From the NCBI GenBank assembly GCA_964417855.1, contig CAYQJB010000001.1:38709-102708 (forward strand): a DNA stretch of 64,000 nucleotides, given 5' to 3'. Shown one piece after another: positions 1,574-64,000 of this stretch. The position numbers and the translations under genes were made by a program. Position 1 is the first letter of the stretch. Each line of letters begins with the position of its first letter. The notes beneath the pieces were generated by a model that saw only the letters and a program-made list of their open reading frames with translations, made no database searches and was not told the origin of the DNA. This DNA is from an uncultured Candidatus Saccharibacteria bacterium (GTDB lineage Bacteria > Patescibacteriota > Minisyncoccia > Phycocordibacterales > CAIZLB01).

Positions 1574-4009
1574 CTACCTCCCCACCACCCCTCTCGTCAT
1601 CTTCCCAAAGAATCCCGTACCTGGTACCTTGTTCGCCTTCTGGAACTTGATAAGCGCAGCCTTGGTAGCGGGGCCAAAGTATGTAGTCTCCTTTCCTTTG
1701 GAACCAACACCTGTCTTTGCAATAGCAAAGCCATTGTTGTTCAAGAACTTCTGTAGTTGTAGTACATCATTGTTTCTCATACCAAGTCTAAGGTCTTTGG
1801 TGAAGTCGTACTTTGTTGATGAAGTTGTAATACCACATGCTTGACCTGTGACTGTACTGAATAGGTTTCCGGAAGCACAACCAATGTTGTTTGATGTCGT
1901 GCTTGATGAGACAAGAGTAGCAAGGAGAGCTGGAGGATAATATCCACCACCTCCTCCCCCACCAGAAGATACAACAATACTTGGATCAGCAGATGTGGTG
2001 AAAGACATTACAGAAGTTGTAGAAGTGTTTGAGTCAGCATCGGTTGAAGTGATTTGGTAATAGTATGTAGTGCTGTAGCTTAAGTTTGGGAGTATCACAT
2101 AGTGTGATGTTGAAGCAAATGATGCATCGGTTGTTGTTGAGGTTGTAACAGATGAGTCTGTTCCATAGTTTAATCCAGTTGTTGCTCCCTTGTCTGTGTT
2201 CCAAGAGATTGTAGCTTGAAGACCAGATAGTGAGACGGCGGTGTTTGTAATTACAGATGGTATTGTTAAGCCAAAGATACCAAATGTTGAGAAGTGTGTT
2301 GTTGGGCAAGTTACGGTGTGAAGTCCAGTATCAACTACACAAGATGATAGCGGAGACCATACAGATCCATCAGTACTGAATATTGTAAGGGTTGAGGGAT
2401 CAGTGACACCAAGTGTTGCTGGGTTATACGTTAGGGTGATGAATAATGGATTGGTGAATGTTGTAAGGGTTGAAGTTGCTGTTGGCATTGCTTGCAATTG
2501 ATACAGTGAGTTGAATAGATTGTATCTTGCTGGTTTGCCGAGAGTGGAGATGACGGTTGTTGTTGCGAGTTCTGTGGCTTCGAACTGGGCGGTGGTTGTT
2601 GTTGCGGAGAAGCCGGTGGGGATGGTTAGGTGTAGGTTTCCCAGACTGAGTGTTCCCAGGTTGCTGATTGCAGTTGAGGTTGATTGAATGTATGTGGTGT
2701 TTGCTATACAGCCCGATGTTTTAAAGGAGTAGTTGGGGGAGGTGGCAGGATTGCTGTATATATCCATTACATCGTATTTATAATTATATGTGGTGCATGG
2801 AAGGAGGTTGGTGATGTTAAAGGAAGATGTTGTTGAAGCGGTTGATGTTGATACTGTATCAGTGTATATACTTGGTGCGAGACCGTATGATACTGATGAT
2901 GTTGCTGATTTGTCCGTAGTGAAGGAGATGGTTGAGGTAGATACTCCGGCTGAGAGGCTGTTGTTGGAGATTATTGGGGTGGTGAAGGAGATGGTGCCAC
3001 TGTGATCTAGTGAAGTTATTGTGAGACCATCATAAGAGACAAATAATCTTCCAGGAGTTGAATCAAACGTTGCGTTAGTACCAAACACGTTCGAATCCGA
3101 AGAACGAACAAAAGCAGTACCTCCGTCTATAGAACTATACAAAAACCAATTACCTGCATCCGGTGTACGACCTGCAAACACCTTCATTCCATCATAGGAT
3201 GAAGCAATCTTTCCCCATCCTGCAGTAACTCCAGGTATATCATAATATGTCCAAGATAAACCATCATTTATGGATGTGTATATCTTAGAGTCAGCATCAT
3301 CAGCCCAAAATAAATGACTTCCATCAGGAGAATATTTAAAGCCCATCAAAGTCCCAACCACTGTTGGAAAAGTAGCGGATCTATCTACCCAAGTCGCACC
3401 ACTAGTTGTTGATACATAAAATTTATTAACACCATTAGAAATAGATATTTTTGTACTACTTGCTGACATAGTGAGATAGTTCCAATATCCAGACGGTATA
3501 CTAGAAGTTGCCCAGGTCGCACCACTTGTTGTTGAATAATATAAATACGGCGCAGTATTATTGGTTAAAAATAAATTTACGCCACTAGCTGATGACCACA
3601 TGTCTTTCCATTGTGTATGCGGTATAGAATTTACAGAAGTACTTGTCGCCCACGTTAAACCACTATCTATCGAATACCATATATTTGTATTTGTTTTTAG
3701 CCATAATTTTGTAAAATCGTCTGACCCCGTTATACTTATACCCATATCGGACCATGTACTTGTACCCAATTGACTGATTGGAGTAAAGGTAGCGCCGCTT
3801 GTAGTTGAAATGTTGATAGATCTGGTTCCGCCCCTAACGCCAACGATATTCCTGCCATCAGAAGATACAAAGTTAGTGTAAGACGTTTGAGTAAAATTTT
3901 TTTCCACGTGGGCAGTAGAAGCTTCAGCTTTTTTATACTCAACAGGACATAAAACAATCGAAAACAAGAACAATGACAAGGTAATCAGTTTAAGATTATT
4001 TTTTAACAT
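1574..4009 (-). CDS. secreted cell-surface protein with BNR/Asp-box repeats, poly-Gly linker and C-terminal peptidoglycan-binding (PG_binding_1-like) domain
   Basis: Signal peptide. Repeated S-x-D/S-G-x-T-W/F boxes (YSTTSGATW, SIDSGLTW, SINDGLSW). GGGGGGGYYPP linker. C-terminal DVLQLQKFLNNNGF...FGPATKAALIKFQ motif. Confidence 0.55.
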   Translation of the reverse strand: MLKNNLKLITLSLFLFSIVLCPVEYKKAEASTAHVEKNFTQTSYTNFVSSDGRNIVGVRGGTRSINISTTSGATFTPISQLGTSTWSDMGISITGSDDFTKLWLKTNTNIWYSIDSGLTWATSTSVNSIPHTQWKDMWSSASGVNLFLTNNTAPYLYYSTTSGATWATSSIPSGYWNYLTMSASSTKISISNGVNKFYVSTTSGATWVDRSATFPTVVGTLMGFKYSPDGSHLFWADDADSKIYTSINDGLSWTYYDIPGVTAGWGKIASSYDGMKVFAGRTPDAGNWFLYSSIDGGTAFVRSSDSNVFGTNATFDSTPGRLFVSYDGLTITSLDHSGTISFTTPIISNNSLSAGVSTSTISFTTDKSATSSVSYGLAPSIYTDTVSTSTASTTSSFNITNLLPCTTYNYKYDVMDIYSNPATSPNYSFKTSGCIANTTYIQSTSTAISNLGTLSLGNLHLTIPTGFSATTTTAQFEATELATTTVISTLGKPARYNLFNSLYQLQAMPTATSTLTTFTNPLFITLTYNPATLGVTDPSTLTIFSTDGSVWSPLSSCVVDTGLHTVTCPTTHFSTFGIFGLTIPSVITNTAVSLSGLQATISWNTDKGATTGLNYGTDSSVTTSTTTDASFASTSHYVILPNLSYSTTYYYQITSTDADSNTSTTSVMSFTTSADPSIVVSSGGGGGGGYYPPALLATLVSSSTTSNNIGCASGNLFSTVTGQACGITTSSTKYDFTKDLRLGMRNNDVLQLQKFLNNNGFAIAKTGVGSKGKETTYFGPATKAALIKFQKANKVPGTGFFGKMTRGVVGR

Positions 4010-4057
4010 ATGTTTTATTCTAACATAAAAACAAAATATTTACTAGTAAAATAGACA

Positions 4058-4083
4058 ATCGAGCCCTCGTTAGAGAGCTCGAT
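4058..4083 (-). terminator. hairpin ATCGAGC-N12-GCTCGAT downstream of 4133-4579, followed by a T-rich run on the minus strand
   Basis: Inverted repeat read directly. Confidence 0.35.
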
Positions 4084-4132
4084 ATAATGTCTTGACCTTC
4101 CGTATTAATAATTTAAATACCTATTCTGGTGA

Positions 4133-4579
4133 CTATTTAGCTTTTACGATTTTTGTTGTAACAGCAGCCCCTTTTTTAACGACCTTCTTTACAGACTTTG
4201 CTCCTACTCCCAATTCCTTTGAAATTGTCTTCCAATGAGACTTTAATTCTGTTGCTAATTTTTCAAGCTCTGGAGCCTCAATCTTCTTGATTTTAGTGTA
4301 CTTTGATAATACAGAGTCCACATTAGTTTTGTACTTGTCCTCTGTAACATCCTTCATGTCTTCTAGTCTATCAAGTACCTCACCCTTTGCTTTTAATATC
4401 CAACCTTTAGCGTTTTTAATTTTTTTCTTTGCATCTTTTGAATTGTGAACAAAATATGCTCCAACTGCAGCTGCTGCAGTAAGACCACCAATAACTCCTA
4501 GAACACCCGCAACATTACTGCCTTTAGCGTCAGTGCTTTTTTTAGCACCTGCTTTGTTTCCTGTTTTTGTTGTATTCAT
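4133..4579 (-). CDS. hypothetical Lys-rich protein with one TM helix
   Basis: ORF with hydrophobic segment GVLGVIGGLTAAAAVGAYFV. No recognisable catalytic motif. Confidence 0.4.
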   Translation of the reverse strand: MNTTKTGNKAGAKKSTDAKGSNVAGVLGVIGGLTAAAAVGAYFVHNSKDAKKKIKNAKGWILKAKGEVLDRLEDMKDVTEDKYKTNVDSVLSKYTKIKKIEAPELEKLATELKSHWKTISKELGVGAKSVKKVVKKGAAVTTKIVKAK

Positions 4580-4685
4580 AACTCATATATTATATCAAGA
4601 GTAAAAAATTATGCAAAATAGATATACCCTAATATTAGGCAATTCAGTCCAAGGTTTAAATTGTGAGTAACTACGCCCCGAATAC

Positions 4686-5030
4686 CTAGTCCTCTTTCTT
4701 TACCTTCTTCTTTCCCCCAGCTCTAGATTTACGTGTAGTCCTTTCTTCCCCATCCCCAGCAGATCCATTACCCGATCTAATAAAAGATCCAAAAACAAAC
4801 TTCATTAGATTCATTGCCTTGCTTCCCTGCTCCTCAATAGACTCTCTAACCATCAAAACATCTTCCATAATACGGTCAGCCTCTTCTTTTAATTTTCTAG
4901 ATGTATATTCCAAATGCCTAGCTATTTGTATAATGTAATATAAAAATATTATTAGCAGCGATGTAAGGACCACCATTGCTAATGTTGTCATAAAGAAAAA
5001 TATATCGGCATGAACAAAAGATGAATTCAT
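4686..5030 (-). CDS. hypothetical small membrane protein
   Basis: ORF with N-terminal TM helix and basic C-terminus. Confidence 0.35.
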   Translation of the reverse strand: MNSSFVHADIFFFMTTLAMVVLTSLLIIFLYYIIQIARHLEYTSRKLKEEADRIMEDVLMVRESIEEQGSKAMNLMKFVFGSFIRSGNGSAGDGEERTTRKSRAGGKKKVKKED

Positions 5031-37306: not shown

Positions 37307-38236
37307 TTAGACCTTCAAATACTTCTTCACCGCCAAATAACTTGAAACAGCACCGAGAATTAGTCCTGTTCCAACAACAACCATAAACATCTGTCCAAAA
37401 TTTGAAACATAGTAGCTAAAGATATTTAGCCCAGTTCCAAGATTAAACGTAAGCGGACCAACATAATAAGTCATTGGATATAATAGAATCAAGGTTATAA
37501 TTCCAGCTACGGCACCATACATTAAACCAACAGTAACAAACGGACCTCTAATATACATTTCACTAGCACCAACTAATCTCATAACAGCAATTTCCTCTCT
37601 GAAGATGTAAATCGCCAATCTAACGGTATTAAATGTTATTAAAATTGAAACGATTGCAAAGAACGTCACCACAATTGTTCCAAGCTTCCTTGAAGAATCC
37701 ATTATTCTATTAAGCGCATCAATTGCTTGTTTATTGTTAGAATAGTTTACTCTATCAACAATACCCGCGCCATTTCCATCGACACCAGTTTTCTGACTAT
37801 CCAAGAATTTTACGATTGACTCATATTGTGAAGGATTCTTTGCTCTAATATTAAAGCTAGCTCCAAGTGGGTTTGCCCCAATTTCATCTAATGCTTGAAG
37901 TGTAAGCTCATCATCTTGATGTCTCTTTCTAAATTGAGTTAATGACTCCTCTCTTGAAACAAATGTAGCTGAAGCAACTTCTGGCAAATTCTTAATAGAC
38001 TTTTGAAGTGAAGCTATGTCTTCATCGCTTGCGGATTGAGTTAAATAAACATTAACATCAACCTTACTTTCAATTGATTTCAATGTCGATGTTAGCATCG
38101 CGCCAATAAAGATGATTGAAGATATGACGAGTAGTGTCACAATCATCACGAGAACCGATGCCAGAGAAACTGATCCGTTTCTCCAGAAACTTACAAAACC
38201 TGACTTTAATGTTCTTTTTATATTTGTCCAAATCAT
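37307..38236 (-). CDS. ftsX: cell division ABC-transporter-like permease FtsX
   Basis: Four-TM topology with large periplasmic loop; the FtsE partner gene lies upstream. Confidence 0.8.
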   Translation of the reverse strand: MIWTNIKRTLKSGFVSFWRNGSVSLASVLVMIVTLLVISSIIFIGAMLTSTLKSIESKVDVNVYLTQSASDEDIASLQKSIKNLPEVASATFVSREESLTQFRKRHQDDELTLQALDEIGANPLGASFNIRAKNPSQYESIVKFLDSQKTGVDGNGAGIVDRVNYSNNKQAIDALNRIMDSSRKLGTIVVTFFAIVSILITFNTVRLAIYIFREEIAVMRLVGASEMYIRGPFVTVGLMYGAVAGIITLILLYPMTYYVGPLTFNLGTGLNIFSYYVSNFGQMFMVVVGTGLILGAVSSYLAVKKYLKV

Positions 38237-38293
38237 AAGTTTATTATAACCCCATATGTGGGAATTACAAAATCATGAAAAATAGATATACGG

Positions 38294-38910
38294 TTAGTTT
38301 CCAGCACAATATGACCGGTCCCAGACATAAGGATCCGTTGGACCCACCAATTCCTTATTTAAATAAGAAATACCCACGTCTATAGGATTGTTTTGTTTAT
38401 CAAGTACATACAAATTAAAATAATATTCGTTAAAGGATCTTTTACCCCCACAATCATAACCCCAACTACTATCCCAAGATAAAGGAGAAAGGTAGCTAAC
38501 ATTAACTGTGCCATAATTTGGGATAGTTTTTAGAATAGATATTAAATCTCCATTATACATTTTTTTTAACTGTAGATCAGCCGTAATATAAGTTGTAAAA
38601 CCTCCGTCACTCCATACTGTATCACCAGGATCAAAATTAACATCACATTCACCATACTGACACAACGAAGAGGATGGGTAGTGACCGTAAGCTGTTCTGT
38701 ACACTTCCAAAGACTTCATGAACTCCTCAAGAGAACTTTTAACCTTGGACATTTGCGCTTTTTGCCTAGCTATATTAACAGAAGCCAACACAATAGATGA
38801 AAGCAAGGCAATAATCGATATAACCACCAAAAGCTCAATTAAAGTGAATCCTGCTTTTTTACTATTACCACCCCCCCCCTTGCTAGTTTTTTGTTTTTGA
38901 AAATATTCAT
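38294..38910 (-). CDS. type IV pilin-like protein whose leader (ATG at 38908-38910) is out of frame with the mature domain because of a G9 tract
   Basis: A G10 tract would give MNIFKNKKLARGGGGNSKKAGFTLIELLVVISIIALLSS... The in-frame portion 38294-38830 lacks an ATG. Confidence 0.55.
38871..38879 (-). repeat. homopolymeric G9 (C9 on plus) tract inside the pilin leader-coding region
   Basis: Read directly. It is the only tract of this kind noticed in an AT-rich window. Confidence 0.9.
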
Positions 38911-38941
38911 TTTACTAGTTTTTCAGGTTTTTTTCTTTTTA

Positions 38942-39622
38942 TTACACAACAAACTCCCCTGTCTCACTATCCATAACAATCGCACCATCCTTCATTGAAA
39001 TAACTCTTTTACCAACATGATCCACCACTCCAGTGTTATGTGTAGTTAGGATGACGGTTGTTCCAAGATCATTGATCTTTTTAAGAATCTGAATAATCTC
39101 ATAGGCGGTCTTTGGATCTAGATTTCCAGTTGGCTCATCGGCAATAATAATGTCTGGTTGATTAACAATAGCTCTTGCGATAGCCACTCTCTGCTTCTCT
39201 CCACCTGAAAGTTGGTGAGGAAAGTTATGCATTTTATTACCAAGATCAACTAACTCTAGAACATGAGGAACATCAGCATGAATCTCTTCCTCATTTCTTC
39301 CTGCGGCTTCCATTGCAAAAGCTACGTTCTCATAGGCAGTTTTGTCGGATAATAATCTAAAATCCTGAAACACAGTTCCAACACGCCTTCTGTATTCATT
39401 CATATCAGACTTTCTTATTCCATGAATATCAATATTTTCAAAGGTTATAATTCCCTCTGTAGGTTTCTCCTCCGCTAAGATCATTTTAAGCAAAGTTGTC
39501 TTTCCAGCACCTGAGTGCCCCACAATTGAAACAAACTCTTTTGGTTTGATTAATAATGAAACATTATCTAACGCAAATGTATTATCAGCGTATTTTTTTG
39601 AGACTTTGTCGAGGAATAACAT
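38942..39622 (-). CDS. ftsE: cell division ATP-binding protein FtsE
   Basis: Walker A GHSGAGKTT, signature LSGGEKQRVAIARA, Walker B IIIADEPTG. Confidence 0.85.
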   Translation of the reverse strand: MLFLDKVSKKYADNTFALDNVSLLIKPKEFVSIVGHSGAGKTTLLKMILAEEKPTEGIITFENIDIHGIRKSDMNEYRRRVGTVFQDFRLLSDKTAYENVAFAMEAAGRNEEEIHADVPHVLELVDLGNKMHNFPHQLSGGEKQRVAIARAIVNQPDIIIADEPTGNLDPKTAYEIIQILKKINDLGTTVILTTHNTGVVDHVGKRVISMKDGAIVMDSETGEFVV

Positions 39623-39664
39623 ATAGAGATATTATAACCCCATATGCGGTTTTTACAAAATGCT

Positions 39665-40567
39665 TTATTCCGCAAAGAACTTTTTCTCTGCCTGTATAAA
39701 ATCGTCCAGATCTCCACTTAAAACATTCTCCACCTTACTAGTCTCCTCCCCAGTCCTATGATCCTTAACCATTTTATATGGATGAAGTACATATGATCTT
39801 ATCTGATTCCCCCACTCGGCATCCGTAGTCTTGCTCACATATAAACCTTTTTCTTTTGCCAGTCTTTCTTCTTCTTGATGTGCATATATTTTGGCCTTCA
39901 ACATTGCAATTCCTTTTTCTCTATTCTGTAACTGCGAACGTTCAGTTGTAACATGCACAGACATTTTTGTTGGCTTATGAACAATCCTAACTGCAGTTTC
40001 CCTTTTATTTACATTCTGTCCCCCAGGACCTCCGGCTCTTGCATAGGAGTATTCCAATTCATCTTCTGGAATTTCAATATCAACTTCCCTTTCAAATTTT
40101 GGTACAACCTCAACCATAGAAAAACTTGTATGTCTTAATTGTTTTGAATTAAACGGAGAAAGTCTAACAAGCCTATGCACTCCTGACTCATGTTTTAAAG
40201 TTCCGTAAGCGTTCTTTCCATCTATGTCAAAAGAGACATTTCTGTATCCTCCGTGATCATTTTTGTGTTCGTGAATCAAGGTCATACTCCAGCCTTTTTT
40301 TGAGATGAACTTCTGATACATTTCAAATAGCATTCTAGAGAAATCTTCTGAATCATCCCCTCCAGCTCCTGAGAAGATTGTAATAATAGCCGAGCCTCCG
40401 TCATAAGGGCTTCCACCAAGACCGCTTGCAAGCTCTGTTTTTAGGTCCTGAAGCTCTTTTATTGTAGCCTGCGCTGTTGTTGAATCATTCCAAAAATCAA
40501 CAGCGTTCATTGCTGATTCTATTTCAATTATTCTAGCTTCTTTTTCTTTTTTGTTTAGATTATTCAT
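39665..40567 (-). CDS. prfB: peptide chain release factor 2
   Basis: SPF tripeptide and GGQ motif (GGPGGQNVNKRET). Confidence 0.85.
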   Translation of the reverse strand: MNNLNKKEKEARIIEIESAMNAVDFWNDSTTAQATIKELQDLKTELASGLGGSPYDGGSAIITIFSGAGGDDSEDFSRMLFEMYQKFISKKGWSMTLIHEHKNDHGGYRNVSFDIDGKNAYGTLKHESGVHRLVRLSPFNSKQLRHTSFSMVEVVPKFEREVDIEIPEDELEYSYARAGGPGGQNVNKRETAVRIVHKPTKMSVHVTTERSQLQNREKGIAMLKAKIYAHQEEERLAKEKGLYVSKTTDAEWGNQIRSYVLHPYKMVKDHRTGEETSKVENVLSGDLDDFIQAEKKFFAE

Positions 40568-40773: not shown

Positions 40774-40818
40774 GCCCGAGCCTTAAAACCGCTCGGGCTT
40801 AAGGTTTGATTTTATTTT
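40774..40818 (+). terminator. plus-strand hairpin GCCCGAGC-N9-GCTCGGGC followed by a T-rich run, overlapping the mazF stop
   Basis: Read directly. Confidence 0.45.
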
Positions 40819-41202
40819 AATCAGATCTTTTATAGACCTCTGTATCATTGCGAAATCTTTGTCTGACAAATATCCGATATGAGTGTCTAGCCTTTTTGTA
40901 TCCAAAACCCTAAGTTGAGAGATTATAACAGACTGCTCAGTATTTTTCAGTAAGACCTTCACATAATAGATATTGTCTTTATTTTTAGTACTCATTGGTA
41001 TTCCCCAAAAAATGTTATTATTGAATTTTTTGAATACCAAAACAGGCCTTCGAAATATATACCCTTTTCCGTTTTCTTCATCCCCAACATTCTCCCCCAG
41101 TGCGCACCATCGAACCTCACCTTCTTTAATATAGATTCCCTTCCTTTCTTTTTTATCCAAATTAATTTTCACATATATCCAATCAATAAATATTTTTAGC
41201 AT
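40783..41202 (-). CDS. MazF/EndoA (PemK)-family endoribonuclease toxin with approx 25-aa N-terminal extension; no antitoxin gene adjacent
   Basis: EGEVRWCALGENVGDEENGKG..RRPVLV and SVIISQLRVLDTKRLDTHIGYLSDKDFAMIQRSI align with B. subtilis EndoA ([25 protein letters not shown] / [32 protein letters not shown]). Confidence 0.7.
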   Translation of the reverse strand: MLKIFIDWIYVKINLDKKERKGIYIKEGEVRWCALGENVGDEENGKGYIFRRPVLVFKKFNNNIFWGIPMSTKNKDNIYYVKVLLKNTEQSVIISQLRVLDTKRLDTHIGYLSDKDFAMIQRSIKDLIKIKSNLKPERF

Positions 41203-48488: not shown

Positions 48489-48560
48489 CGCGGCTGATGG
48501 GTGCTGACCCCACGGCCTCTCCCGTGACAGGGGAGTGCTCTACCGTTGAGCTACAGCCGC
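48489..48560 (-). tRNA. tRNA-Asp (anticodon GUC), CCA not encoded, unusual T-loop GTCAGCA
   Basis: Cloverleaf: GCGGCTG/CAGCCGC acceptor, GCTC-AACGGTA-GAGC D-arm, CTCCC-CTGTCAC-GGGAG anticodon arm. Confidence 0.6.
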
Positions 48561-49159
48561 ATTTTCATGAATCCTTCGAAAATAAGCTTTTTTCTGTCCA
48601 GATAAAGCTTACTCGTCGTATTATACATGATTTTATAAATTTTCAAAGAGTCTCGGGTACTATACTGTAATCTACTATAATTTCCACTTCTAAGGTTAAA
48701 TAAACTTCCACCGTCCAAACCTAAAGAATTAAGCATATTAAATAGATTATTTAAGAACATTTTACTAGCAGAAGTAAAGGCTACAAACATCACGGATGTT
48801 GGTTTTTTTCTTGTTTTATTAGTATGCCCTACCCAGATATTTCCATCCCCATCAAAATACCCTCTAATAAAATCTCCTTCATATTTTTTTGGAATGGTAG
48901 GAATATCCATTCTTAATGACTTATTTGGGGTAAGTCCAAGGAGTACAAGGTCATTAAACATTTCTTTGCTTCCAATTTGGACCCTATATACAGACCCCGT
49001 TTCTGATTTTATTTCAGATATTTTATGTGGTAATTTCATTACTTCAGCAATAGAAATAAGAAGTTCCCTGTCAGCCGTATAGAAAGAGATAAAATGAGTA
49101 TTTCTTTTAGTTTTAATTATGTTACCATCTGCAAATAAAAAACCTAAAATATAAGCCAT
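48551..49159 (-). CDS. double-motif LAGLIDADG homing endonuclease; stop lies inside tRNA-Asp 5' end
   Basis: LGFLFADGNI and IRGYFDGDGNIW dodecapeptide motifs. Confidence 0.75.
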   Translation of the reverse strand: MAYILGFLFADGNIIKTKRNTHFISFYTADRELLISIAEVMKLPHKISEIKSETGSVYRVQIGSKEMFNDLVLLGLTPNKSLRMDIPTIPKKYEGDFIRGYFDGDGNIWVGHTNKTRKKPTSVMFVAFTSASKMFLNNLFNMLNSLGLDGGSLFNLRSGNYSRLQYSTRDSLKIYKIMYNTTSKLYLDRKKLIFEGFMKMRL

Positions 49160-49423: not shown

Positions 49424-49460
49424 TACCCAGCAAAAAAGCCCCTATTAGGAGCTTTTTTTT
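49424..49460. terminator. bidirectional hairpin AAAAAAGCCCCTATTAGGAGCTTTTTTTTTT between the two CAU tRNAs
   Basis: Read directly. Confidence 0.6.
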
Positions 49461-50551: not shown

Positions 50552-51895
50552 TTACTGGGGGGTGCTGGTGCCGGTGTCAACACAGGTGTTAGTTACATAG
50601 TCAAAATATGTGGTCTCCGTTGCTCCAGCACAGTAAGGTTCAACAGACGTCTTTCTTTGATCAACCGAGGCTGCGCATGTACCATTGGCAGTATTTTCCG
50701 TTCCGTCTGTAAGGAACACCAGACCTTCAGGACAAACAGCCTCAGTAGTACAATCCGTATCCGCTGAATCCACATCATTATCCAAATCATTATCTATACC
50801 GTCATGACATGTTGTTAAAGTATTTTCAGGACGTGATAGAAAAGGGTGAGCACCCGAGTGCAAAAAACCGGCACAATCTGCATCATAATTATCACTAGCT
50901 CCATCACCATCATTATCGATATGATCGTTACAAAGATCTGCTGTATTCTCCTGTGGAGATGGAGAAGTAATGGTATTTACGATTGGAGCAAAGACAGTCT
51001 CATAGAAGCTTCCTCCTGAACCATTAGAAATAGCAGGGGCACCATTTGTAATACCAGCAACGGCATCAACGGAGTCGCTTATATTGGTAGATGCCTCTAA
51101 ACCATCATGTCCTGCAGGGAAGGGTCTCTCAGAAACTTCAGATTCACCAGCTCCAACAGTATACTCCACAACACCATACGTGTACCCATTTTCGTTTTCG
51201 CCTCCATTATTCAAAACATCAATAGCCGCAGGACTCGTGTCCCCTAAAATAAAACCAGTTCTCTTGTTTATAATACCACTTGATTCTGACCCACCTCCAC
51301 TTACTCCAACTTGAGCTGTCAAAATAGAGTAAGTTGCAAACGTTGTGTCAGTTTTAATTGCCTTATAACAAATCCCTGCTGCATCATCATCATATGGGTG
51401 AACGGGTACGGCTGGCATGTATTTTTTTGCTACCAATGCCGCCGCCGCATTATCAAAGTTTACACAAAGCTGTGTCGTACTATGTGTGGCTGATGCATCA
51501 GCCTTTTTAATAAAAAACGAAAGTTTGTTTGCCCAATTTGCTCTTTGTTCATTGTTGTGTCCAGCCGTTCTCTGCAAACCCAAAACCTTATTTTCCTTTT
51601 GATTATTCAGCGCAACGGTAGTTCCATCTGTTGGCGGAAATGTATGTGTATCATTATAATAAAGATCTGCAGCTATTCTAAACTGCCTCAAGTCCTCTGT
51701 TATCTTTGTATCATTAGTTTTCATTCTTGTGCTAGCAAGATTATTTAGAACAATTGATGACATTAGTGCGATTATCGCAACAACAACGAGAAGCTCAATT
51801 AAAGTGAAAGCTCTTTCTCTATTAGTTTTAGTTTTCATCATACTTATATTATACAGCTTTATCGAAAAAAATCGACAACATAACGCCAAATACAA
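50552..51895 (-). CDS. type IV pilin-like protein with C-terminal thrombospondin-type-3-like Asp repeats
   Basis: Prepilin N-terminus RAFTLIELLVVVAIIALMSSIV. C-terminal DNDGDGASDNYDADC and DNDLDNDVDSADTDC. Confidence 0.6.
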   Translation of the reverse strand: MYLALCCRFFSIKLYNISMMKTKTNRERAFTLIELLVVVAIIALMSSIVLNNLASTRMKTNDTKITEDLRQFRIAADLYYNDTHTFPPTDGTTVALNNQKENKVLGLQRTAGHNNEQRANWANKLSFFIKKADASATHSTTQLCVNFDNAAAALVAKKYMPAVPVHPYDDDAAGICYKAIKTDTTFATYSILTAQVGVSGGGSESSGIINKRTGFILGDTSPAAIDVLNNGGENENGYTYGVVEYTVGAGESEVSERPFPAGHDGLEASTNISDSVDAVAGITNGAPAISNGSGGSFYETVFAPIVNTITSPSPQENTADLCNDHIDNDGDGASDNYDADCAGFLHSGAHPFLSRPENTLTTCHDGIDNDLDNDVDSADTDCTTEAVCPEGLVFLTDGTENTANGTCAASVDQRKTSVEPYCAGATETTYFDYVTNTCVDTGTSTPQ

Positions 51896-53870: not shown

Positions 53871-54128
53871 CTAATAAAGTTCGCTATGCGAACCAATTTC
53901 GACTAGAATAACCACATCTTTCTGACTTTTATCAAAAATAACTCTAACATCCCCTGTTACATTCAAACTCCATAAATCCTTTAACTTACCAGATAGTCTA
54001 TGAATATTTAGAGACCTATCACCTGAGTCTTTTATAAAAATTCCTATTCTAGCCCTGAACTCATTTTTAATTCTTTGGTCCTGTTTTTTAAATTGCTTAT
54101 CAAATTTATTGGTAGTGGTTATTATCAT
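53871..54128 (-). CDS. RelE/ParE-superfamily toxin (YafQ-like)
   Basis: HRLSGKLKDLWSLNVTGDVRVIFDK...VVILVEIGSHSELY matches the YafQ/RelE C-terminal pattern. Confidence 0.65.
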   Translation of the reverse strand: MIITTTNKFDKQFKKQDQRIKNEFRARIGIFIKDSGDRSLNIHRLSGKLKDLWSLNVTGDVRVIFDKSQKDVVILVEIGSHSELY

Positions 54129-54156
54129 TAGTAAGGTTCATTATGACGACTAGAGA

Positions 54157-54462
54157 TTAAGAATTAAGATGCTTCATTAAATCATTGGTATTATCAAATG
54201 GGCCCGAGGTTTTACCTTCTTTATATTCTTTCCTTGCTTCAACAATTAAAGACTCTAAACGTGGTGTTATGGTTGTTGATGTAGAAAATTCAAGCTGACC
54301 AGTTCTTGCAAATTGCTTTAGTGTTGCGTTCACTATTGAACTCAAAGACAGCCCTAGATCAAAGGCTCTTTGCTGGGCTTGTACCTTTACATCATTATCT
54401 ATCTTTAGATTGACCTGTGTTTTCATATACCATAAGTATATACTTATGGTAGCGTGAGTCAA
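54157..54462 (-). CDS. DinJ/RelB-like RHH antitoxin (likely start MKTQVNL at 54426)
   Basis: VNLKIDNDVKVQAQQRAFDLGLSLSSIVNATLKQ ribbon-helix-helix segment. Overlaps and pairs with the toxin gene. Confidence 0.6.
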   Translation of the reverse strand: MTHATISIYLWYMKTQVNLKIDNDVKVQAQQRAFDLGLSLSSIVNATLKQFARTGQLEFSTSTTITPRLESLIVEARKEYKEGKTSGPFDNTNDLMKHLNS

Positions 54463-56691: not shown

Positions 56692-57324
56692 TTAGTATTG
56701 TACATCCAGACCTCTTTCTACCGTTCTTGGATTTGCAGTATTACAACCTATTTTATCGGCTGTTACACCAGAATTATATCCTCTAGAAATAATTCTGGTG
56801 TAGGGTACGTTTTCTGTATTACCCAAATCATCTGTTGCACTATTATAACCTTTAGCAATCACGACTTTTGCACAAGACGGATATCCATCGGTATTATTTG
56901 AATAATCAATAATTAAAGTTGAGGTTGCTGCATCAAAAGACACCATTTTTGATGCATATATTTTACCAGCTCCGCAACGAATAGTTGCATTTTCGGTGGG
57001 TATAGGTATAGGTGTAGGTGTAGCTGCGACAACAGTAGAAGATGCAGAAAATGGACCATCATCCAAAACATTTGTTCCATCAGCATTTTTTACATCCCAA
57101 AACTGTACACATTCAGAGCCAGAGTCAGCTGCATAAAAAGCAATCTGTGAATCTTTTCCTGAGCCTGCAAGAAGTAATTGCTTCAAAATAATATTCCCAA
57201 TAGAAAAACCAACAGCAAGCAGAAGGCTTGAGACAACCATAGCCACAAAGAGTGTAAAACCAGAAGATCTGCTTTCTCTTGTGCTGTTCTTTTTGTTTTT
57301 CATCAGTTTATTTAAATTAATCAT
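56692..57324 (-). CDS. minor type IV pilin/pseudopilin
   Basis: Prepilin N-terminus GFTLFVAMVVSSLLLAVG. Confidence 0.6.
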   Translation of the reverse strand: MINLNKLMKNKKNSTRESRSSGFTLFVAMVVSSLLLAVGFSIGNIILKQLLLAGSGKDSQIAFYAADSGSECVQFWDVKNADGTNVLDDGPFSASSTVVAATPTPIPIPTENATIRCGAGKIYASKMVSFDAATSTLIIDYSNNTDGYPSCAKVVIAKGYNSATDDLGNTENVPYTRIISRGYNSGVTADKIGCNTANPRTVERGLDVQY

Positions 57325-57345
57325 ATTGTAATTATATTACTTAAA

Positions 57346-58005
57346 TTATAAACCATTTTTAGAAGCCCAGTTTGTAAAATACTCTTTTAAAGTAAGCTTT
57401 GATTGACTACTTCCAGTTTTCCAATACATATTCACAACCATAACAATTTCTTGCGGGACTGCCGGTTGAGTACCTGTAGGCATAGGTACTCTTTCAAAAT
57501 ATATCTCTCTTTTAAATATAGAATCTGTTACTACACTCCCTGTTGTTTTACCAAAAATACCATCCCCAATCTTTAAAAAATTATCATTGTATGCATCAAA
57601 TTGATATCCACCAACACCTATAGTCAAGGATACTGTATTTGTCTTAGTAGTTGCAGCATTAGGAGCCGTCAGTATCATCTTGGTTCCGAATACACCGTCA
57701 GCTGTATTATCTCCAAGCCATATTCTTCTATCAGCATATTTCGCATTATCAACGTAAAACCCCGTAATTCCAATGCTCTGAACATCTCTCAAATTCCTTA
57801 CATATTCAATTGCCTCCTGCGCCAGATAATAAGCGGTCATTTGGTCTCTTGTGTAATACGATGAATGCAAAGCCTGCGCAATAATTCCGAGAGGCCCAAT
57901 AACAGCAATTGTCAAAATAGAAATTGCGACCAAAGTTTCTACCATAGTTAAGCCTGCGTTACTTCTCACCTTACCAATATTTAATTTTATTTTTTTCAGG
58001 AACAT
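57346..58005 (-). CDS. minor type IV pilin/pseudopilin
   Basis: GLTMVETLVAISILTIAVIGPL. Confidence 0.6.
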   Translation of the reverse strand: MFLKKIKLNIGKVRSNAGLTMVETLVAISILTIAVIGPLGIIAQALHSSYYTRDQMTAYYLAQEAIEYVRNLRDVQSIGITGFYVDNAKYADRRIWLGDNTADGVFGTKMILTAPNAATTKTNTVSLTIGVGGYQFDAYNDNFLKIGDGIFGKTTGSVVTDSIFKREIYFERVPMPTGTQPAVPQEIVMVVNMYWKTGSSQSKLTLKEYFTNWASKNGL

Positions 58006-58010
58006 ATTTA

Positions 58011-58652
58011 TTATTTTGGTAGATTTAGATTTCTTTGAGAAATATATGTCTGCACTGTAAAATCAGAAGTCTGGGTTGGGTTCACATTTGCCGTTCCATT
58101 CATCGTAAGAAACACACTCGGTTGACCAGTATAATTTGCAGAGATGGGATTACTCACAACAAATTTTAAATCCTTAATATCAACTTCTGGTGATGTTAAT
58201 GGATATTGGGAAACGACTTCGGACCCTGTGCGGGTTTCTTTCCATATTCTACCCTTACCGTCTGTCACTTCACGATAATATCTAACACCTCTTTTTTCAC
58301 CTGTAATTGTGGATACTAGGGAAATAGAGAAGAACGACGTATTGGGAGTACAACCATTATCACCAGATAGATTAGAAGTCGTGGATGCTGAAATAACATT
58401 CACAGTACAGGTGTAAGCATATCCTGTTTTAATGTCTCTGACCATACTTTCGACTGCAAAGTTTAAGTTATTAGCTACAGCATTTATTGCTTGAGCTTTT
58501 TTGTTACCATCAACGATAGATAAGATTGCTCCAAGACTCAGAGTCATAACCATAGCAAATAAACTAACAGAAACCATAACCTCAATAAGGGTAAAACCTC
58601 TTTTTTGATTGGTATTCTTTTCAGTTTTATTTTTATTATTATTTCTAATCAT
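58011..58652 (-). CDS. minor type IV pilin/pseudopilin
   Basis: GFTLIEVMVSVSLFAMVM. Confidence 0.6.
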   Translation of the reverse strand: MIRNNNKNKTEKNTNQKRGFTLIEVMVSVSLFAMVMTLSLGAILSIVDGNKKAQAINAVANNLNFAVESMVRDIKTGYAYTCTVNVISASTTSNLSGDNGCTPNTSFFSISLVSTITGEKRGVRYYREVTDGKGRIWKETRTGSEVVSQYPLTSPEVDIKDLKFVVSNPISANYTGQPSVFLTMNGTANVNPTQTSDFTVQTYISQRNLNLPK

Positions 58653-58694
58653 TTTTTTATTATTTACTATTTTTCAATAGAACCTCACATTATT

Positions 58695-59396
58695 TTACGG
58701 AATTGGAGTAGTGGGTGTTGTACAATTAAGTCCTGGATTAGGAACCCCCGGATTCTCAACTCTTATCTGCCCAGTAACTTCAACTACAATAGCTCTACAG
58801 TTTGTCCCCTCCGCATTGTTTACAATAATTCTTGCAGGACCCACAGCCTGAGTGACACCAAGACTAGCATCAACAACATAAAAAGTAGCCTCAGGATTTG
58901 GTCTTTTAAACATTATAGCTAGTTTTTCACTAGATTGCAGAGACATACAGGCAGGGTCAGTACCATGGGCGACGCAAGCTCCTGTAATTTTATTTCCTCT
59001 CTGGTTCTGAATTTGATACATTGATTGAACTTCTGATGGTTGACCATCAGACTCAAGTATGCGGGGCACTTTGTTATCATCAGCGTCACCAAATACAACA
59101 ACTTGATTTGAAATTCCCATATCAAAATACGCACCATATCCCATATTAAAATTAGGATTGGCAGAGGCTGTTGCTCTCACTCCAATACCATAGGTCTGTG
59201 CCTCTCTTACAGAAAGTGCAGTCTCATACGCAAGGTTCGTTATCAAAATACTACTATTCAATCCAGTCTGATTAAATAATGCAGCACCCATAATTACAGC
59301 AAAAATACCAAGAACAACAATAAGCTCAATCATAGTAAACCCCCCATTCTTTAGCTTTACAATCTGCTTATTTTTTTTAGAAAAAATTACCTTCAT
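58695..59396 (-). CDS. minor type IV pilin/pseudopilin
   Basis: GFTMIELIVVLGIFAVIM. Confidence 0.6.
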   Translation of the reverse strand: MKVIFSKKNKQIVKLKNGGFTMIELIVVLGIFAVIMGAALFNQTGLNSSILITNLAYETALSVREAQTYGIGVRATASANPNFNMGYGAYFDMGISNQVVVFGDADDNKVPRILESDGQPSEVQSMYQIQNQRGNKITGACVAHGTDPACMSLQSSEKLAIMFKRPNPEATFYVVDASLGVTQAVGPARIIVNNAEGTNCRAIVVEVTGQIRVENPGVPNPGLNCTTPTTPIP

Positions 59397-59437
59397 TAGC
59401 TATATTGTAACACAACAGAAAACAAGAAAATAGTAAA

Positions 59438-60442
59438 TTATGAATTAAATATCGCAAGAAAATCCATTACAGAAATATTTAAGAAGAATACAATCAACAG
59501 TCCAAGTATTAGGAATGGTGCAAACGGTATCTCACTTTGAAATTTAACAGAATACAGTTGCTTGAAATCACTTTGTATTCCCATTCTATTCTTTCTGTTT
59601 GCCGTCTTTTTTGATATAAATTTCATCACAGCAACGCCTCCCATTGCAATAAGTGATATTATTGCTCCAATCCAGAAGGCAAAAACAACAGCTGAGAAGC
59701 CATATTTAACTCCAAGAAGCCATCCGATTCCTAACCCGAGCTTTGCATCACCAAGTCCCATCCACTTCCCTCCTGAGATAAGCCAAATGAAATAGAATGG
59801 AAATGCAACGAAGATTCCAGAAAGTAGCATCATATACCCATCAAAGTTCAGTGGTATGCCAAAAAGAATACTAGAAGTTTCATAATTGAAGCTGAGAAAA
59901 ATCTGAAGAAATGCTATAGCAGCAAATGCGTATGAGAATTCATCGGGAATAATTTTATGCTTGAAATCATAAACTGTCATCAGAACCAGCAAACACATAA
60001 TTATTAAAGATACCCCTACAGATACACCAAAAATTAATGGCGACACCTCAAGTATTGCTGCGTTTTTTAAATATACAAACAAAAACAGAACGGCAGTGAA
60101 AATCTCTACCAATACATATTGTGGAGATATCTTACTTTTACACGTTCTACATTTTCCTTTTAGGAATATCCAACTGAAAATTGGGAACAGGTCTATTACA
60201 GACAATGTTCTTCTGCACGATGGACATTTAGAGCGACCCCCCAACCCCCTCCCTGTATTAAATCTATATAAAACTACATTCAAGAAACTTCCAATAATGG
60301 CGCCAAAAATAAAAAAGGCAAATGATAAGAAAATGGTCATGTCTATATAATACATTATTATTGGTGTGCTGGCGATTGGGTAGTTTCCAGCTGTATTTTG
60401 TGATTTTAGAACAACAAAAAAACCGAGCCGGAATATCTCCAA
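59438..60442 (-). CDS. pilD: prepilin peptidase (A24 family)
   Basis: CPSCRR...CRTC zinc tetracysteine and GLGDAKL catalytic Asp motif. N-terminal extension in the track ORF may be spurious. Confidence 0.8.
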   Translation of the reverse strand: MEIFRLGFFVVLKSQNTAGNYPIASTPIIMYYIDMTIFLSFAFFIFGAIIGSFLNVVLYRFNTGRGLGGRSKCPSCRRTLSVIDLFPIFSWIFLKGKCRTCKSKISPQYVLVEIFTAVLFLFVYLKNAAILEVSPLIFGVSVGVSLIIMCLLVLMTVYDFKHKIIPDEFSYAFAAIAFLQIFLSFNYETSSILFGIPLNFDGYMMLLSGIFVAFPFYFIWLISGGKWMGLGDAKLGLGIGWLLGVKYGFSAVVFAFWIGAIISLIAMGGVAVMKFISKKTANRKNRMGIQSDFKQLYSVKFQSEIPFAPFLILGLLIVFFLNISVMDFLAIFNS

Positions 60443-60475
60443 ACTCGGTTTTTAATTCTCCCAAACTATGTCAAA

Positions 60476-60901
60476 TTAACTTCCACAAACACCCCCCGTA
60501 ACTGTATTTCCTGTTGTAGAAGCTGATTTTCCAGTACTATCTACACACCAATATGCGCCAGACGTCTTTGCTGCTACAGCCCAAGCTGTAGTTGATGCGG
60601 TACAATAAACGGAATTTACTGGTGAAGTTTTTGTCTTAACATCCGTTATAAGAGTTTTTAAGCCTGTATCTGCGATAAAAATACCACCGGTACAGTCAGC
60701 AGAACTACTGTAACTTCCAGCTGTCGAATAATACAACTCCGCCTGAGCTCTCATGTTTGAAAGCTCAGATTGGATAGCTGCATCCTGTCCTTTTGTTCTC
60801 GCTGTTGTAAGTGAAGCTAACACAACAGATGAAAGAATACCGATGATAGCAATAACTACCAAGAGCTCGATCAATGTGAAACCTTTATTTGAATTTTTCA
60901 T
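60476..60901 (-). CDS. pilA: major type IV pilin
   Basis: MKNSNKGFTLIELLVVIAIIGILSSVVLAS prepilin signature, 141 aa. Confidence 0.8.
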   Translation of the reverse strand: MKNSNKGFTLIELLVVIAIIGILSSVVLASLTTARTKGQDAAIQSELSNMRAQAELYYSTAGSYSSSADCTGGIFIADTGLKTLITDVKTKTSPVNSVYCTASTTAWAVAAKTSGAYWCVDSTGKSASTTGNTVTGGVCGS

Positions 60902-60984
60902 AAACTATTTTTAAATTTAATTGTTATAACAATGAGACTGGCCGAAAACCGAAACTGATTTTTAACTTGATTTTGATTTCAAAA

Positions 60985-61011
60985 TTACGTGAGTGTCTTA
61001 AATAGACATTC
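60985..61011. promoter_or_regulatory. 27-bp near-perfect palindrome CGTGAGTGTCTTAAATAGACATTCACG upstream of pilA
   Basis: Read directly. A second 12-bp palindrome TTGTTATAACAA at 60921-60932. Confidence 0.35.
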
Positions 61012-61107
61012 ACGTATGTTTAATTATATACTATATATACAAATAGGCTATTTTGATGTGTGGATAGGTCATTTGCGTCCATTACTTTTTTCCTTCTTTC
61101 CCAATTA

Positions 61108-62319
61108 CTACATAGATGAAGACACGTTGTAAATAGGAATCAAAACTGACGCGAGCAAGAATCCAACACCAAGACCAAGTGCAACAATCATAATAGGTTC
61201 AATCAAGTCCACAAGTGTATCAACTGCTTGCATAACCTCTCTTTGATAGAATTTAGCAAGAGTCTTTAGAATTCCACCCACATCTCCCGTCTCCTCTCCA
61301 ACCTTAACCATCTGTACCATAATTCCTGGAATTTCTTTTTGATAGGGCATCAATGAATCAGACAATGACTTACCACCTCTAACCGCTTCCAATGCGTCAT
61401 TCAACAAATCTTCATAAACTTTATTGTCCACAACCTTACTTGTAAGTTCAAGTGCTTTAACCATAGGAACACCAGAAATTAGCTGTGTGTTCATGTTATC
61501 TGCAATTCTTGAAAGATACAGTTTCTTATACAAACTACTTACATAAGGAATCTCTAATTTAAATTTTGCAAACGAGTCCTTGCCAGCTGGTGTTCTTGCG
61601 TAATAAATAAGTAAAATAATTCCTGCAATGAACACCGCCAAAAAGAAGAATCCATATCTCACCATAAAATTACTAAGTCCAATAACAATTTTTGTATAAA
61701 TAGGAACCTCTTGTCCAGAATCAAGAATAATTGAAGAGATTTTTGGAATAACCACAGTAAGCATCAGAATCATAACGGCAAAGAATGTGAAGATAACAAA
61801 GGCTGGATAAATTAAGGCATTCTTAACCTTTGATGAAACTTCATAACTTCTATCAAGATAGTCAGCTAGGTATTCAAATGTCTCATCCAACTTACCAGAC
61901 TCCTCCCCCGCCTTGATCATGTTTGTATAAAAAGAGGAGAAAACTCTTGGATGCTTTGACAAAGCAGATGACATGGATGTACCACCCTGAATATCTTCTG
62001 CAACTTCTGAAAGAATTATTCTAAGATTCTTATTCTCCATTTCCCCCGCTAGCAATCTAAAGATTCTAAGAGCAGAAACCTGCGCAGTAAAGAGTGTAGC
62101 CAACTGACGAGACAAAATAACAATATCCTTGTTTGAGATACCTGTACCAAAAATAGCCAAATCTCTACTTAAAAGACCTTTATCTTCAGCTGGCTTAATT
62201 GAGGAAATTGTCAGATTTCTTCTTTGAAGAGAGTTTATGGCAATATCAACATTGATTGCATCAATTGTTCCTTCACTCTCGGCTCCACCTTCTCCTATTG
62301 CTTTGTATTTGAATAACAT
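61108..62319 (-). CDS. pilC: type IV pilus platform protein (GspF/PilC family)
   Basis: Two GspF-like repeats with three TM segments, approx 400 aa. Confidence 0.8.
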   Translation of the reverse strand: MLFKYKAIGEGGAESEGTIDAINVDIAINSLQRRNLTISSIKPAEDKGLLSRDLAIFGTGISNKDIVILSRQLATLFTAQVSALRIFRLLAGEMENKNLRIILSEVAEDIQGGTSMSSALSKHPRVFSSFYTNMIKAGEESGKLDETFEYLADYLDRSYEVSSKVKNALIYPAFVIFTFFAVMILMLTVVIPKISSIILDSGQEVPIYTKIVIGLSNFMVRYGFFFLAVFIAGIILLIYYARTPAGKDSFAKFKLEIPYVSSLYKKLYLSRIADNMNTQLISGVPMVKALELTSKVVDNKVYEDLLNDALEAVRGGKSLSDSLMPYQKEIPGIMVQMVKVGEETGDVGGILKTLAKFYQREVMQAVDTLVDLIEPIMIVALGLGVGFLLASVLIPIYNVSSSM

Positions 62320-62339
62320 CTTTTTTAGATTTGTTTAAA

Positions 62340-63401
62340 TTATACCATTCTTTCTAGATTTTTTGGATTCAAAGAATGCTTATATGCAGATTCAATTGAA
62401 ATTTCCCCACGTCTTACTAGCTCCGCAAGGGACCTATTCATATCAATCATACCATCACCCATTCCCGTTTCAATTACGGTATTTATTTCATATGATCTTT
62501 TCTCTCTAATTAAGTTTGCTGTTGCGTTGTTTGCAATCATAAGCTCAAAGGCAGGAACCATTCCACCTGAAATTTTTGGAATTAATCTTTGTGAAAATAT
62601 TCCGGTTAAGGATGATGCCAGCTGTGTTCTAATTTGATCCTGTTGTTCAGGTGGAAATGAATCTATAATTCTATCAATGGTTTGCGATGCATTATTAGTA
62701 TGAAGTGTTGAAAGAACTAAGTGACCAGTCTCGGCTGCTGTTACCGCAGCTGATATTGTCTCCGTATTCCTCATCTCTCCCAATAGAATAACGTTAACGT
62801 CTTGACGCAAAACTGAGGTTAGTGCAGCTTCAAAACTATTTGTATCAACAAAAATCTCTCTTTGGTCAATAATAGATTTCTTTTGTTCATACAAATATTC
62901 AATGGGGTTTTCAATTGTGATAATATGTTCTGCTCTTTCTTGATTAATAAGTTCAACCATAGACGCCAGGGTTGTTGACTTGCCTTGTCCAACTGGACCA
63001 ACTACCAAAAAGAAACCTTGCTTCATTCTGGCAAAGCTTTCCAGAATTTCTGGTAACCCTAACTCCTTAAGTGTCTTTATTTTATTTTGAATAAGTCTAA
63101 GTGCAATAGTATGAGCACTTCTTTGTATATACGCATTACCTCTAAATCTTGACACTTCATTAAACTGATACGAGAAGTCCAACTCTTTATTGTCTAAAAA
63201 TCTTTTACGAGAAGCTTCATCTATCATTAAATTTAACAAGGAATCAATATCATCATGTGTAAGAAGTGGTTTTTTAACTAATGGAATTAAAACCCCATTA
63301 ACTCTAACTGTTGGATGTCTACCCTCAGACAAGTGTAAATCAGACGCCCCCTCTAGGGTAACTGTTGATAAAAGGTCTTTTAATTCTTGTTCGTAATTCA
63401 T
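62340..63401 (-). CDS. pilT: type IV pilus retraction ATPase
   Basis: Walker A GPVGQGKSTT, Walker B ILLGEMR, 353 aa (PilT/PilU size, not PilB). Confidence 0.8.
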   Translation of the reverse strand: MNYEQELKDLLSTVTLEGASDLHLSEGRHPTVRVNGVLIPLVKKPLLTHDDIDSLLNLMIDEASRKRFLDNKELDFSYQFNEVSRFRGNAYIQRSAHTIALRLIQNKIKTLKELGLPEILESFARMKQGFFLVVGPVGQGKSTTLASMVELINQERAEHIITIENPIEYLYEQKKSIIDQREIFVDTNSFEAALTSVLRQDVNVILLGEMRNTETISAAVTAAETGHLVLSTLHTNNASQTIDRIIDSFPPEQQDQIRTQLASSLTGIFSQRLIPKISGGMVPAFELMIANNATANLIREKRSYEINTVIETGMGDGMIDMNRSLAELVRRGEISIESAYKHSLNPKNLERMV

Positions 63402-63425
63402 ATTTTTTATTTTAATAGTTTAAAA

Positions 63426-63842
63426 TTATATAGAAACACCTACCCTTCTATCTTTTGTTCTCTCTAAAAGAGCAAAAACTTCTGTGACAATTTCTGATGG
63501 AATAGATGTTGCCTTAACAATATAACCATCAACACCAAGACTTTTGGCCTTCTCAATATCAGATGGCTGTCCTTGATTACTAAGCATCATAATAGCAGCT
63601 CTCTTTGCTAGGCCGTCCACCCTGATTGCGTTCAACGCCTCTATGCCATCCATTACAGGCATTACAACATCCAGAAGAATGACATCAGGTTCGTATCCAT
63701 CCTTTAGTTTGGTAACAGCAACCAAACCATTGCCAGCTAAAGTAACATCAAATCTATTATTGGTAAATTTTATTGAATACATATTCAATAAAAACTTATC
63801 ATCATCCACAATCATTACTTTAAATGGTATATCTCCGTTCAT
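63426..63842 (-). CDS. single-domain CheY-like response regulator receiver
   Basis: IMIVDDD..., phospho-acceptor D in ILLDVVMP, conserved K in GYIVK. Confidence 0.75.
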   Translation of the reverse strand: MNGDIPFKVMIVDDDKFLLNMYSIKFTNNRFDVTLAGNGLVAVTKLKDGYEPDVILLDVVMPVMDGIEALNAIRVDGLAKRAAIMMLSNQGQPSDIEKAKSLGVDGYIVKATSIPSEIVTEVFALLERTKDRRVGVSI

Positions 63843-63933
63843 GTTTTTATTATATCACAAAACAATTACAAAAAAATGTAGATAGTAACATTCCAACATA
63901 AAAAAAACACTTCTCTCTACGCAATAGATCTTA

Positions 63934-64000
63934 CTAAACTTTACTGATTTCTTCCATCGGAATAACTTTATTTAAAGCCTTGATTGTAGCATCCTCTTTC
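63934..64000 (-). CDS. partial CDS (C-terminal 22 codons ...KEDATIKALNKVIPMEEISKV), gene continues beyond the window
   Basis: Hand translation of the minus strand; stop TAG at 63934-63936. Confidence 0.3.
   Translation of the reverse strand, partial: KEDATIKALNKVIPMEEISKV

Follow-up and report, generated by a model that had tools for sequence, protein, structure and literature searches.

In gonococci and meningococci, the pilC gene possesses a homo-guanine tract in the region encoding the signal peptide, and frameshifts in this tract switch expression in a RecA-independent manner, according to a later publication (PMC5354566, citing Jonsson et al. 1991). The contingency loci of Campylobacter, Helicobacter, and Haemophilus contain intragenic G/C homopolymers of about 8-11 bases that are located near the 5' ends of the genes (PMC8355987). 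The DNA studied here, a stretch of 64,000 bases with a G+C content of 36.5% to which we refer as the window, carries a G9 homopolymer on its minus strand (38871-38879; C9 on the plus strand, CCCCCCCCC) that occupies codons 11-14 of the leader of a type IV pilin gene. As far as that account of the pilC genes of Neisseria gonorrhoeae and N. meningitidis goes, the likeness consists in the presence of the tract in a type IV pilus gene, and there in a protein segment that is subsequently cleaved off.

A life attached to other microbes is assumed for Patescibacteria, whose main known device for attachment and motility is the type IV pilus. A full-text search of the literature yielded no paper that links Patescibacteria or the Candidate Phyla Radiation (CPR) with phase variation or with homopolymer tracts in pilins. 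The class of mechanism considered here is thus a known one, set in a lineage for which such switches are unreported in the literature searched.

Results

Inspection of the window for runs of G or C longer than 6 bases revealed the tract in the pilin leader and none besides it. Since only 0.004-0.1 runs of 9 or more bases are expected per window (iid or first-order Markov models), the length of this tract lies far beyond chance; the first-pass annotation, which had called a G9 run conspicuous in an AT-rich genome, was well founded on this point. An ATG at position 38910 opens a reading frame of 23 codons (MNIFKNKKLARGGVVIVKKQDSL, followed by a stop codon; 38839-38910, minus strand) that starts out as a prepilin leader and is out of the pilin frame past the tract; it is the product of the OFF state, in which the leader is read out of frame beyond G9. 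The pilin reading frame (38294-38911, minus strand) is open from a TAA at 38912-38914 to its stop at 38294 and encodes ...GGGGNSKKAGFTLIELLVVISIIALLSS..., with the codon for the Gly at position -1 of the mature protein at 38851-38849, that for the Phe at +1 at 38848-38846, and a Glu at +5. When read by hand from 38911 to 38830, this frame contained no ATG, GTG, or TTG until the TTG at 38830, which is situated downstream of the G/F cleavage site (G-1 codon at 38851).

A single added G (G10) joins the ATG at 38910 to the pilin frame and yields a prepilin of 205 amino acids that is identical to the database protein P0121; a variant of it with one exchanged residue (P0001) is also on record. An uninterrupted repeat in the 5' coding region therefore specifies a peptide of 23 amino acids as G9 and a prepilin of 205 amino acids as G10. 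When we re-read the window sequence, the coordinates given in the first-pass annotation, both of its translations, and its arithmetic for G10 and G7 all proved right. It had also correctly described the ATG-initiated frame as ending after the G9 tract (the stop is at 38839), the frame of the mature pilin as lacking a start, and the G10 product as a canonical prepilin with a G/F site.

The product of the G10 frame has the properties of a class III leader peptide, with a cleavage site (...KKAG/FTLIELLVVISIIALLSS) that combines Gly at -1, Phe at +1, and Glu at +5, and it matches the Pfam profile PF07963 (N_methyl) with an E value of 1.5e-8 and 34.3 bits (cut-off 21.2). In the alignment of this family, all 18 homologs share G21, F22, T23, L24, I25, and E26 as well as a C-terminal Cys. 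An AF2 model computed with the family alignment as input (pLDDT 87.5) predicts a disordered leader, a helix comprising residues 24-75, and a subsequent beta sheet. Structure searches placed the pilins CFA/III, TcpA, CofA/B, PilE, PulG, and PilA4 among the longest alignments, with weak scores, a result that is consistent with the predicted pilin fold but not decisive for it.

The pilin gene sits between ftsE and ftsX, downstream of prfB. The ftsE gene (ABC ATPase; 38942-39622, minus strand) ends 31 nt upstream of the ATG of the pilin gene, and ftsX (FtsX_ECD and FtsX permease domains; 37307-38236, minus strand) starts 57 nt after its stop codon. The promoter-like sequence TTGTAA-N16-TATAAT is found just upstream of ftsE (39631-39658, minus strand) and in the spacer between the pilin gene and ftsX (38243-38270, minus strand), in both cases as a consensus match only. 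The pilin gene is probably co-transcribed with ftsE, since the 31-nt spacer separating them contains no promoter-like site and the motif at 39631-39658, again judged by its match to the consensus, is the sole strong candidate promoter for an ftsE-pilin transcript. Through its own promoter-like motif, ftsX may be expressed independently of the ON or OFF state of the pilin gene and thereby be shielded from polarity.

The two motifs are identical, and each is separated by only 6-8 nt from the ATG of the gene that follows it (ftsX or ftsE); were they real promoters, the mRNAs of both genes would be leaderless or nearly so. The prfB (RF2) reading frame (39665-40567, minus strand) encodes 300 amino acids only and matches PCRF from profile position 80; its product starts at about the point where the E. 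coli RF2 protein resumes after its programmed frameshift. Several small mobile or selfish elements are found around the locus (40783-41202, 53871-54426 [L043:12184-12739], and 48551-49159), namely a PemK/MazF-like toxin gene adjoining prfB, a RelB/YafQ toxin-antitoxin pair adjoining ligA, and a LAGLIDADG-like ORF.

The window also contains a type IV pilus gene cluster (56692-64000), which is located 20 kb from the tract and is encoded, like the pilin gene between ftsE and ftsX, on the minus strand. Its genes, identified through precomputed Pfam hits on a contig that is 100% identical to the window, encode the prepilin peptidase PilD (A24_N_bact and Peptidase_A24; 59438-60442), PilC (T2SSF; 61108-62319), PilT (62340-63401), a pilin of 141 amino acids with the short leader MKNSNKG (60476-60901), two pilin-like proteins (58695-59396 and 58011-58652), a response regulator, and two more small proteins, all coordinates referring to the minus strand; PilB runs off the window end. 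Hence, the genome that harbors the tract pilin also provides a cognate prepilin peptidase together with an assembly ATPase and platform, and PilD would be the enzyme expected to cut the leader of the tract pilin at the G/F site. No gene of the pilus cluster in the window contains a G/C tract. Because the pilus machinery is clustered at 56692-64000, apart from the site between ftsE and ftsX, the tract pilin is an accessory ("orphan") pilin. A pilin-type N-terminus (RAFTLIELLVVVAIIALMSS) is also present in a large protein of 429 amino acids (50552-51841, minus strand) that is encoded beside gatA/gatC and not in the main pilus cluster.

We then compared the tract in 15 distinct near-identical contigs. 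Thirteen of them, from JGI, ENA, Logan, and NCBI assemblies, possess G10, and two possess G9, in a set gathered in part through look-ups with the in-frame protein, which are biased towards G10. The G9 carriers are the window and the NCBI contig JBAXXP010000001.1 (MAG GCA_037127815.1), which begins at window position 1593 and is therefore a record separate from that of the window; the two may derive from the same sample. A look-up with FtsX, which is free of the in-frame bias, gave eight contigs that span the tract, seven with G10 and one with G9. The near-identical contigs trace to metagenomes of the IISD-ELA Boreal Shield lakes (JGI 3300020158, 3300020228, 3300021349, and 3300021605, SRA runs, GCA_005795785.1, GCA_037127815.1, and ENA assemblies). 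On the best reading of these sequences, the pilin gene would be ON in most of the sampled populations and the window would represent its OFF state.

An exact look-up of the truncated products expected from G9 templates (178, 177, and 152 amino acids) returned no positions on record, and a search of a metagenome contig collection with a variable-gap pattern and a fixed 26-mer gave no match, this collection evidently being without the lake samples in question. The NCBI annotation of JBAXXP010000001.1 has no gene at the position of the pilin, and another record contains a stub of 152 amino acids (P0123); such tracts cause genuine genes to be left out or shortened by annotation pipelines.

The immediate rival to a true length difference is a miscounted homopolymer: the tract would be G10 everywhere, the gene would be intact, and G9 would stem from PCR stutter, read correction, or an assembler consensus error. 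Both library PCR and sequencing are prone to errors at G/C homopolymers of 9-10 bases, and such an error would fit the finding that 13 of the 15 contigs possess G10, as well as the fact that both G9 contigs are very long MAG contigs, possibly from one sample or pipeline. The Logan contig L041 starts at 38866, 5 nt past the tract, which hints at local assembly trouble. In addition, the window and the JGI contig Ga0194052_1000108 (L001) differ by a single substitution in 20.6 kb, and it falls 3 nt upstream of the tract (L001:10029, corresponding to window position 38883), where GCA is changed to GGA (Ala to Gly). This substitution may be a real neighboring mutation or a tract-associated sequencing error, and heterogeneity or technical trouble at the tract would explain both it and the start of L041.

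Against a miscount stands the agreement of these assemblies everywhere else. In the segment 28294-48910, the alignment of the window with L001 contains a single mismatch and a single gap, the gap being the tract, and the other contigs depart from the window in the tract gap alone; in the segment 44471-64000, comparison with nine other contigs yielded no indel and at most one mismatch. The tract is accordingly the only indel in the approximately 35.7 kb compared (28294-64000), and 34 of 34 other homopolymers of at least 7 bases are equal in length, including a T10 at 49453. Since no other indel occurs and these homopolymers agree, the assemblies with G9 are otherwise accurate. The G9 state is moreover present in two different contig records, and miscounts of a 10-mer are rare in a majority-rule consensus of Illumina reads. 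Illumina HiSeq is the probable source of the data: the 756 "ELA" MAGs reported for these lakes by Tsuji et al. (2024) stem from 37 metagenomes sequenced on the Illumina HiSeq 2500 (PMC10972752). From the accession order, in which JBAWXN (ELA064) is followed 678 steps later by JBAXXP, we infer that the latter is ELA742 and belongs to the ELA set. Taken together, we consider a miscount rather unlikely, and even if G10 were the only true state, a perfect G10 run in the 5' coding region would still be a potential switch. A homopolymer error of long-read sequencing was judged unlikely, given that all other homopolymers agree and that the likely source is Illumina.

Many short-read contigs end at a distance of no more than a few hundred bases from the pilin gene, five of them (L003, L004, L005, L007, and L008) at window positions 39054-39273 and two (L006 and L009) at about 37534, and in a low-coverage contig (L011:1-33) 33 unrelated bases replace the start of the pilin gene. 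Such features may reflect strain heterogeneity or assembly trouble at the locus.

The first-pass annotation had proposed a comparison of tract length in related genomes. Within the species, this comparison revealed the length difference described above (G9 in two contigs, G10 in 13), the outcome predicted by phase variation; among congeners, it revealed pilin genes without a tract. A scan of species-representative genomes with FtsX recovered 15 Patescibacteria MAGs labeled as Parcubacteria or Paceibacterota, mostly from freshwater lakes, with FtsX identities of 45-92%; no conspecific genome was found among the species representatives, the relatives having at most 92% identity. In 13 of the 15 MAGs, ftsE is adjacent to ftsX. 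A pilin of the same family is encoded between ftsE and ftsX in L013 (3343-3939) and between prfB and ftsE in L015 (1095-1793), and the tract is absent from both genes. Since the orthologs in these congeners are devoid of a tract, it is young and lineage-specific.

At an FtsX identity of about 90%, the position of the pilin gene in the prfB-ftsE-ftsX cluster varies, the gene being absent in some species and present in others, where it adjoins ftsE on the side of either ftsX or prfB; this comparison also took in L012, L014, and L022 (around 3295-4927). The pattern suggests rapid relocation, or rapid gain and loss, of these orphan pilin genes. In the 113 kb from the 15 related MAGs, we found one G/C run of at least 7 bases, a C8 run in L020, which was rejected as a pilin tract because its surroundings are rich in GC, apparently non-coding, and unrelated to pilins. 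The region L020:380-560 (reverse strand) is strikingly GC-rich and poor in ORFs and has the look of a structured-RNA gene.

Leaders with a pure G run (Gly3-4) are present in three of about 118 homologous pilins, compared to about 0.003 expected by our own estimate. The first of the three is the gene in the window; the second, the paralog P0002/P0124 (44% identity), has G8 in its leader at gene nt 49. P0124 is encoded at L053:4001-4657 on contig 2 (JBAXXP010000002.1) of GCA_037127815.1, the MAG with the G9 tract, whose sequence is identical to the window wherever the two were compared. The P0124 gene has a PAS histidine kinase gene on one side and a response regulator gene on the other, a placement comparable to that of the window pilin between ftsE and ftsX. 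Its tract aligns with that of the window (AAAACTRnnA-Gn) and hence occupies a homologous leader site; it is G8 in 10 of 10 assemblies, a set biased by the exact in-frame protein look-up. The third, the more distant pilin P0022 (35% identity), has a G8 run in the leader at gene nt 31. GGG accounts for 12.7% of the Gly codons and AGG for 14.4% of the Arg codons in the window. The tract appears to be maintained, since it is a perfect run of rare codons and since diverged paralogs have kept such a run at the corresponding point of the leader, and the choice of codons points to selection for the tract itself and not for glycine.

P0106 was rejected as a tract carrier because interruptions break up the run that codes for its Gly5 leader (GGAGGAGGGGG); this would be the appearance expected of a decayed tract. 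The long "leaders" of P0022 and P0106 (L028:936-1070 and L030:2501-2626) have DNA blocks in common (ATCCTCCAnAnTTTT ... CAAAAACTTAnTAGGACAAnG) whose reading frame differs between the two genes; the blocks may represent a conserved 5' nucleotide element rather than a coding one.

These comparisons also bear on simple decay, according to which one base was deleted at a mutational hotspot and a subpopulation thereby lost this accessory pilin, with neither regulation nor reversion to any meaningful extent; the gene would be on its way to becoming a pseudogene. Relatives can do without the pilin, as the 13 MAGs with adjoining ftsE and ftsX genes indicate, and the missing NCBI gene call in JBAXXP010000001.1 would fit a lost gene. 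Yet the remaining ORF is 100% intact in the G9 contigs and carries no second lesion, the perfect tract is kept in all conspecific contigs, and a diverged paralog keeps a homologous tract, whereas unselected tracts tend to become interrupted (cf. the run in P0106). We therefore hold decay to be improbable.

Highly improbable, finally, is a recoding of G9 transcripts by -1 ribosomal frameshifting on G_GGG_GGG or by an RNA polymerase that adds a G: frame arithmetic indicates that a -1 shift within the run restores the pilin frame and yields the exact G10 protein, and tRNA-Gly would be able to re-pair on the G run, but the in-frame G10 is the common state (13 of 15 contigs) that makes recoding unneeded, the orthologs are single ORFs, the 111 nt downstream of the tract have a fold of -24.4 kcal/mol (z = -1.24 compared to shuffled sequences) and thus no significant structure, and transcriptional slippage is known to be efficient mainly at A/T runs, so that programmed frameshifting was rejected as the main explanation and would at most make the OFF state leaky.

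Discussion

The data reported here favor, with a probability that we put somewhat above even, a genuine hypermutable on/off tract that operates by slipped-strand mispairing and that is captured in its OFF state in the window. As in contingency loci, the repeat is over-represented, and its length differs among near-identical genomes. According to this proposal, the tract would be a hypermutable simple-sequence repeat in the leader-coding part of an accessory type IV pilin gene, and slipped-strand mispairing during replication would alter its length. With G10 (or G7 or G13), translation from the ATG at 38910 would read through Arg-Gly4 into KKAG/FTLIELLVV and produce the prepilin of 205 amino acids, which would then be processed by PilD (59438-60442) and assembled by the neighboring pilus machinery; with G9, translation would halt after 23 codons and the pilin would be absent. 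Since the Gly run would be removed with the leader by PilD, the length of the tract in the ON frames should be neutral for the mature pilin. We infer from the sequences that the changes in length occur in vivo at high frequency and reversibly, and that switching this pilin is useful. In a Patescibacteria cell with an episymbiotic way of life, the switch might alter attachment to the host cell or the exposure to pilus-binding phages.

The first-pass annotation had named the tract a candidate for a phase-variation switch. That proposal gains from the G9/G10 polymorphism, from its being the sole indel in about 35.7 kb, and from the G8 tract of the paralog, and it loses from the missing tract in congeners and from the residual chance of a miscount in the G9 assemblies; the sequence comparisons have strengthened it in part and stop short of proof. 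A wider scenario strikes us as possible rather than probable: freshwater Patescibacteria (Parcubacteria/Paceibacteria-like) might possess a small family of orphan pilins whose genes reside inside unrelated operons (between ftsE and ftsX, or between a histidine kinase and a response regulator) and whose poly-G leaders serve as stochastic switches by which a clonal, ultra-small episymbiont varies the pilins on its pili and, with them, host attachment or susceptibility to phages. If true, this scenario would make these pilin genes the first contingency loci reported from the CPR, and a mutational on/off switch of a pilin would give reduced genomes a concrete mechanism of diversity that can be tested cheaply.

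When compared to described systems, the locus resembles the Campylobacter-type contingency loci in that these affect genes for surface structures, are found in small AT-rich genomes, and possess tracts whose length varies among otherwise identical isolates. It differs from them in several respects. Their genomes contain tens of tracts, whereas there is one here in 64 kb and at least one elsewhere in the genome; their targets are mostly genes for glycosyltransferases, flagellar modification, and restriction-modification and not pilins; and switching rates have been measured there. With the type IV pilins that Patescibacteria and Saccharibacteria use for host attachment and twitching, the tract pilin shares the protein class, the machinery (PilB, PilC, PilD, PilT, and several pilins), and the likely role in episymbiotic attachment; unlike them, it is an orphan between ftsE and ftsX, outside the pilus cluster. 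Unlike the tract pilin with its class III leader, PilC of Neisseria is a PilY1-like protein, a large adhesin of the pilus tip that also acts in assembly, and it carries a Sec signal peptide. The two are not homologous in sequence, and pilC belongs to a host-associated proteobacterial pathogen in which switching has been shown experimentally. By analogy in both mechanism and placement of the tract, gonococcal pilC is nonetheless the closest, albeit non-homologous, counterpart of the locus described here.
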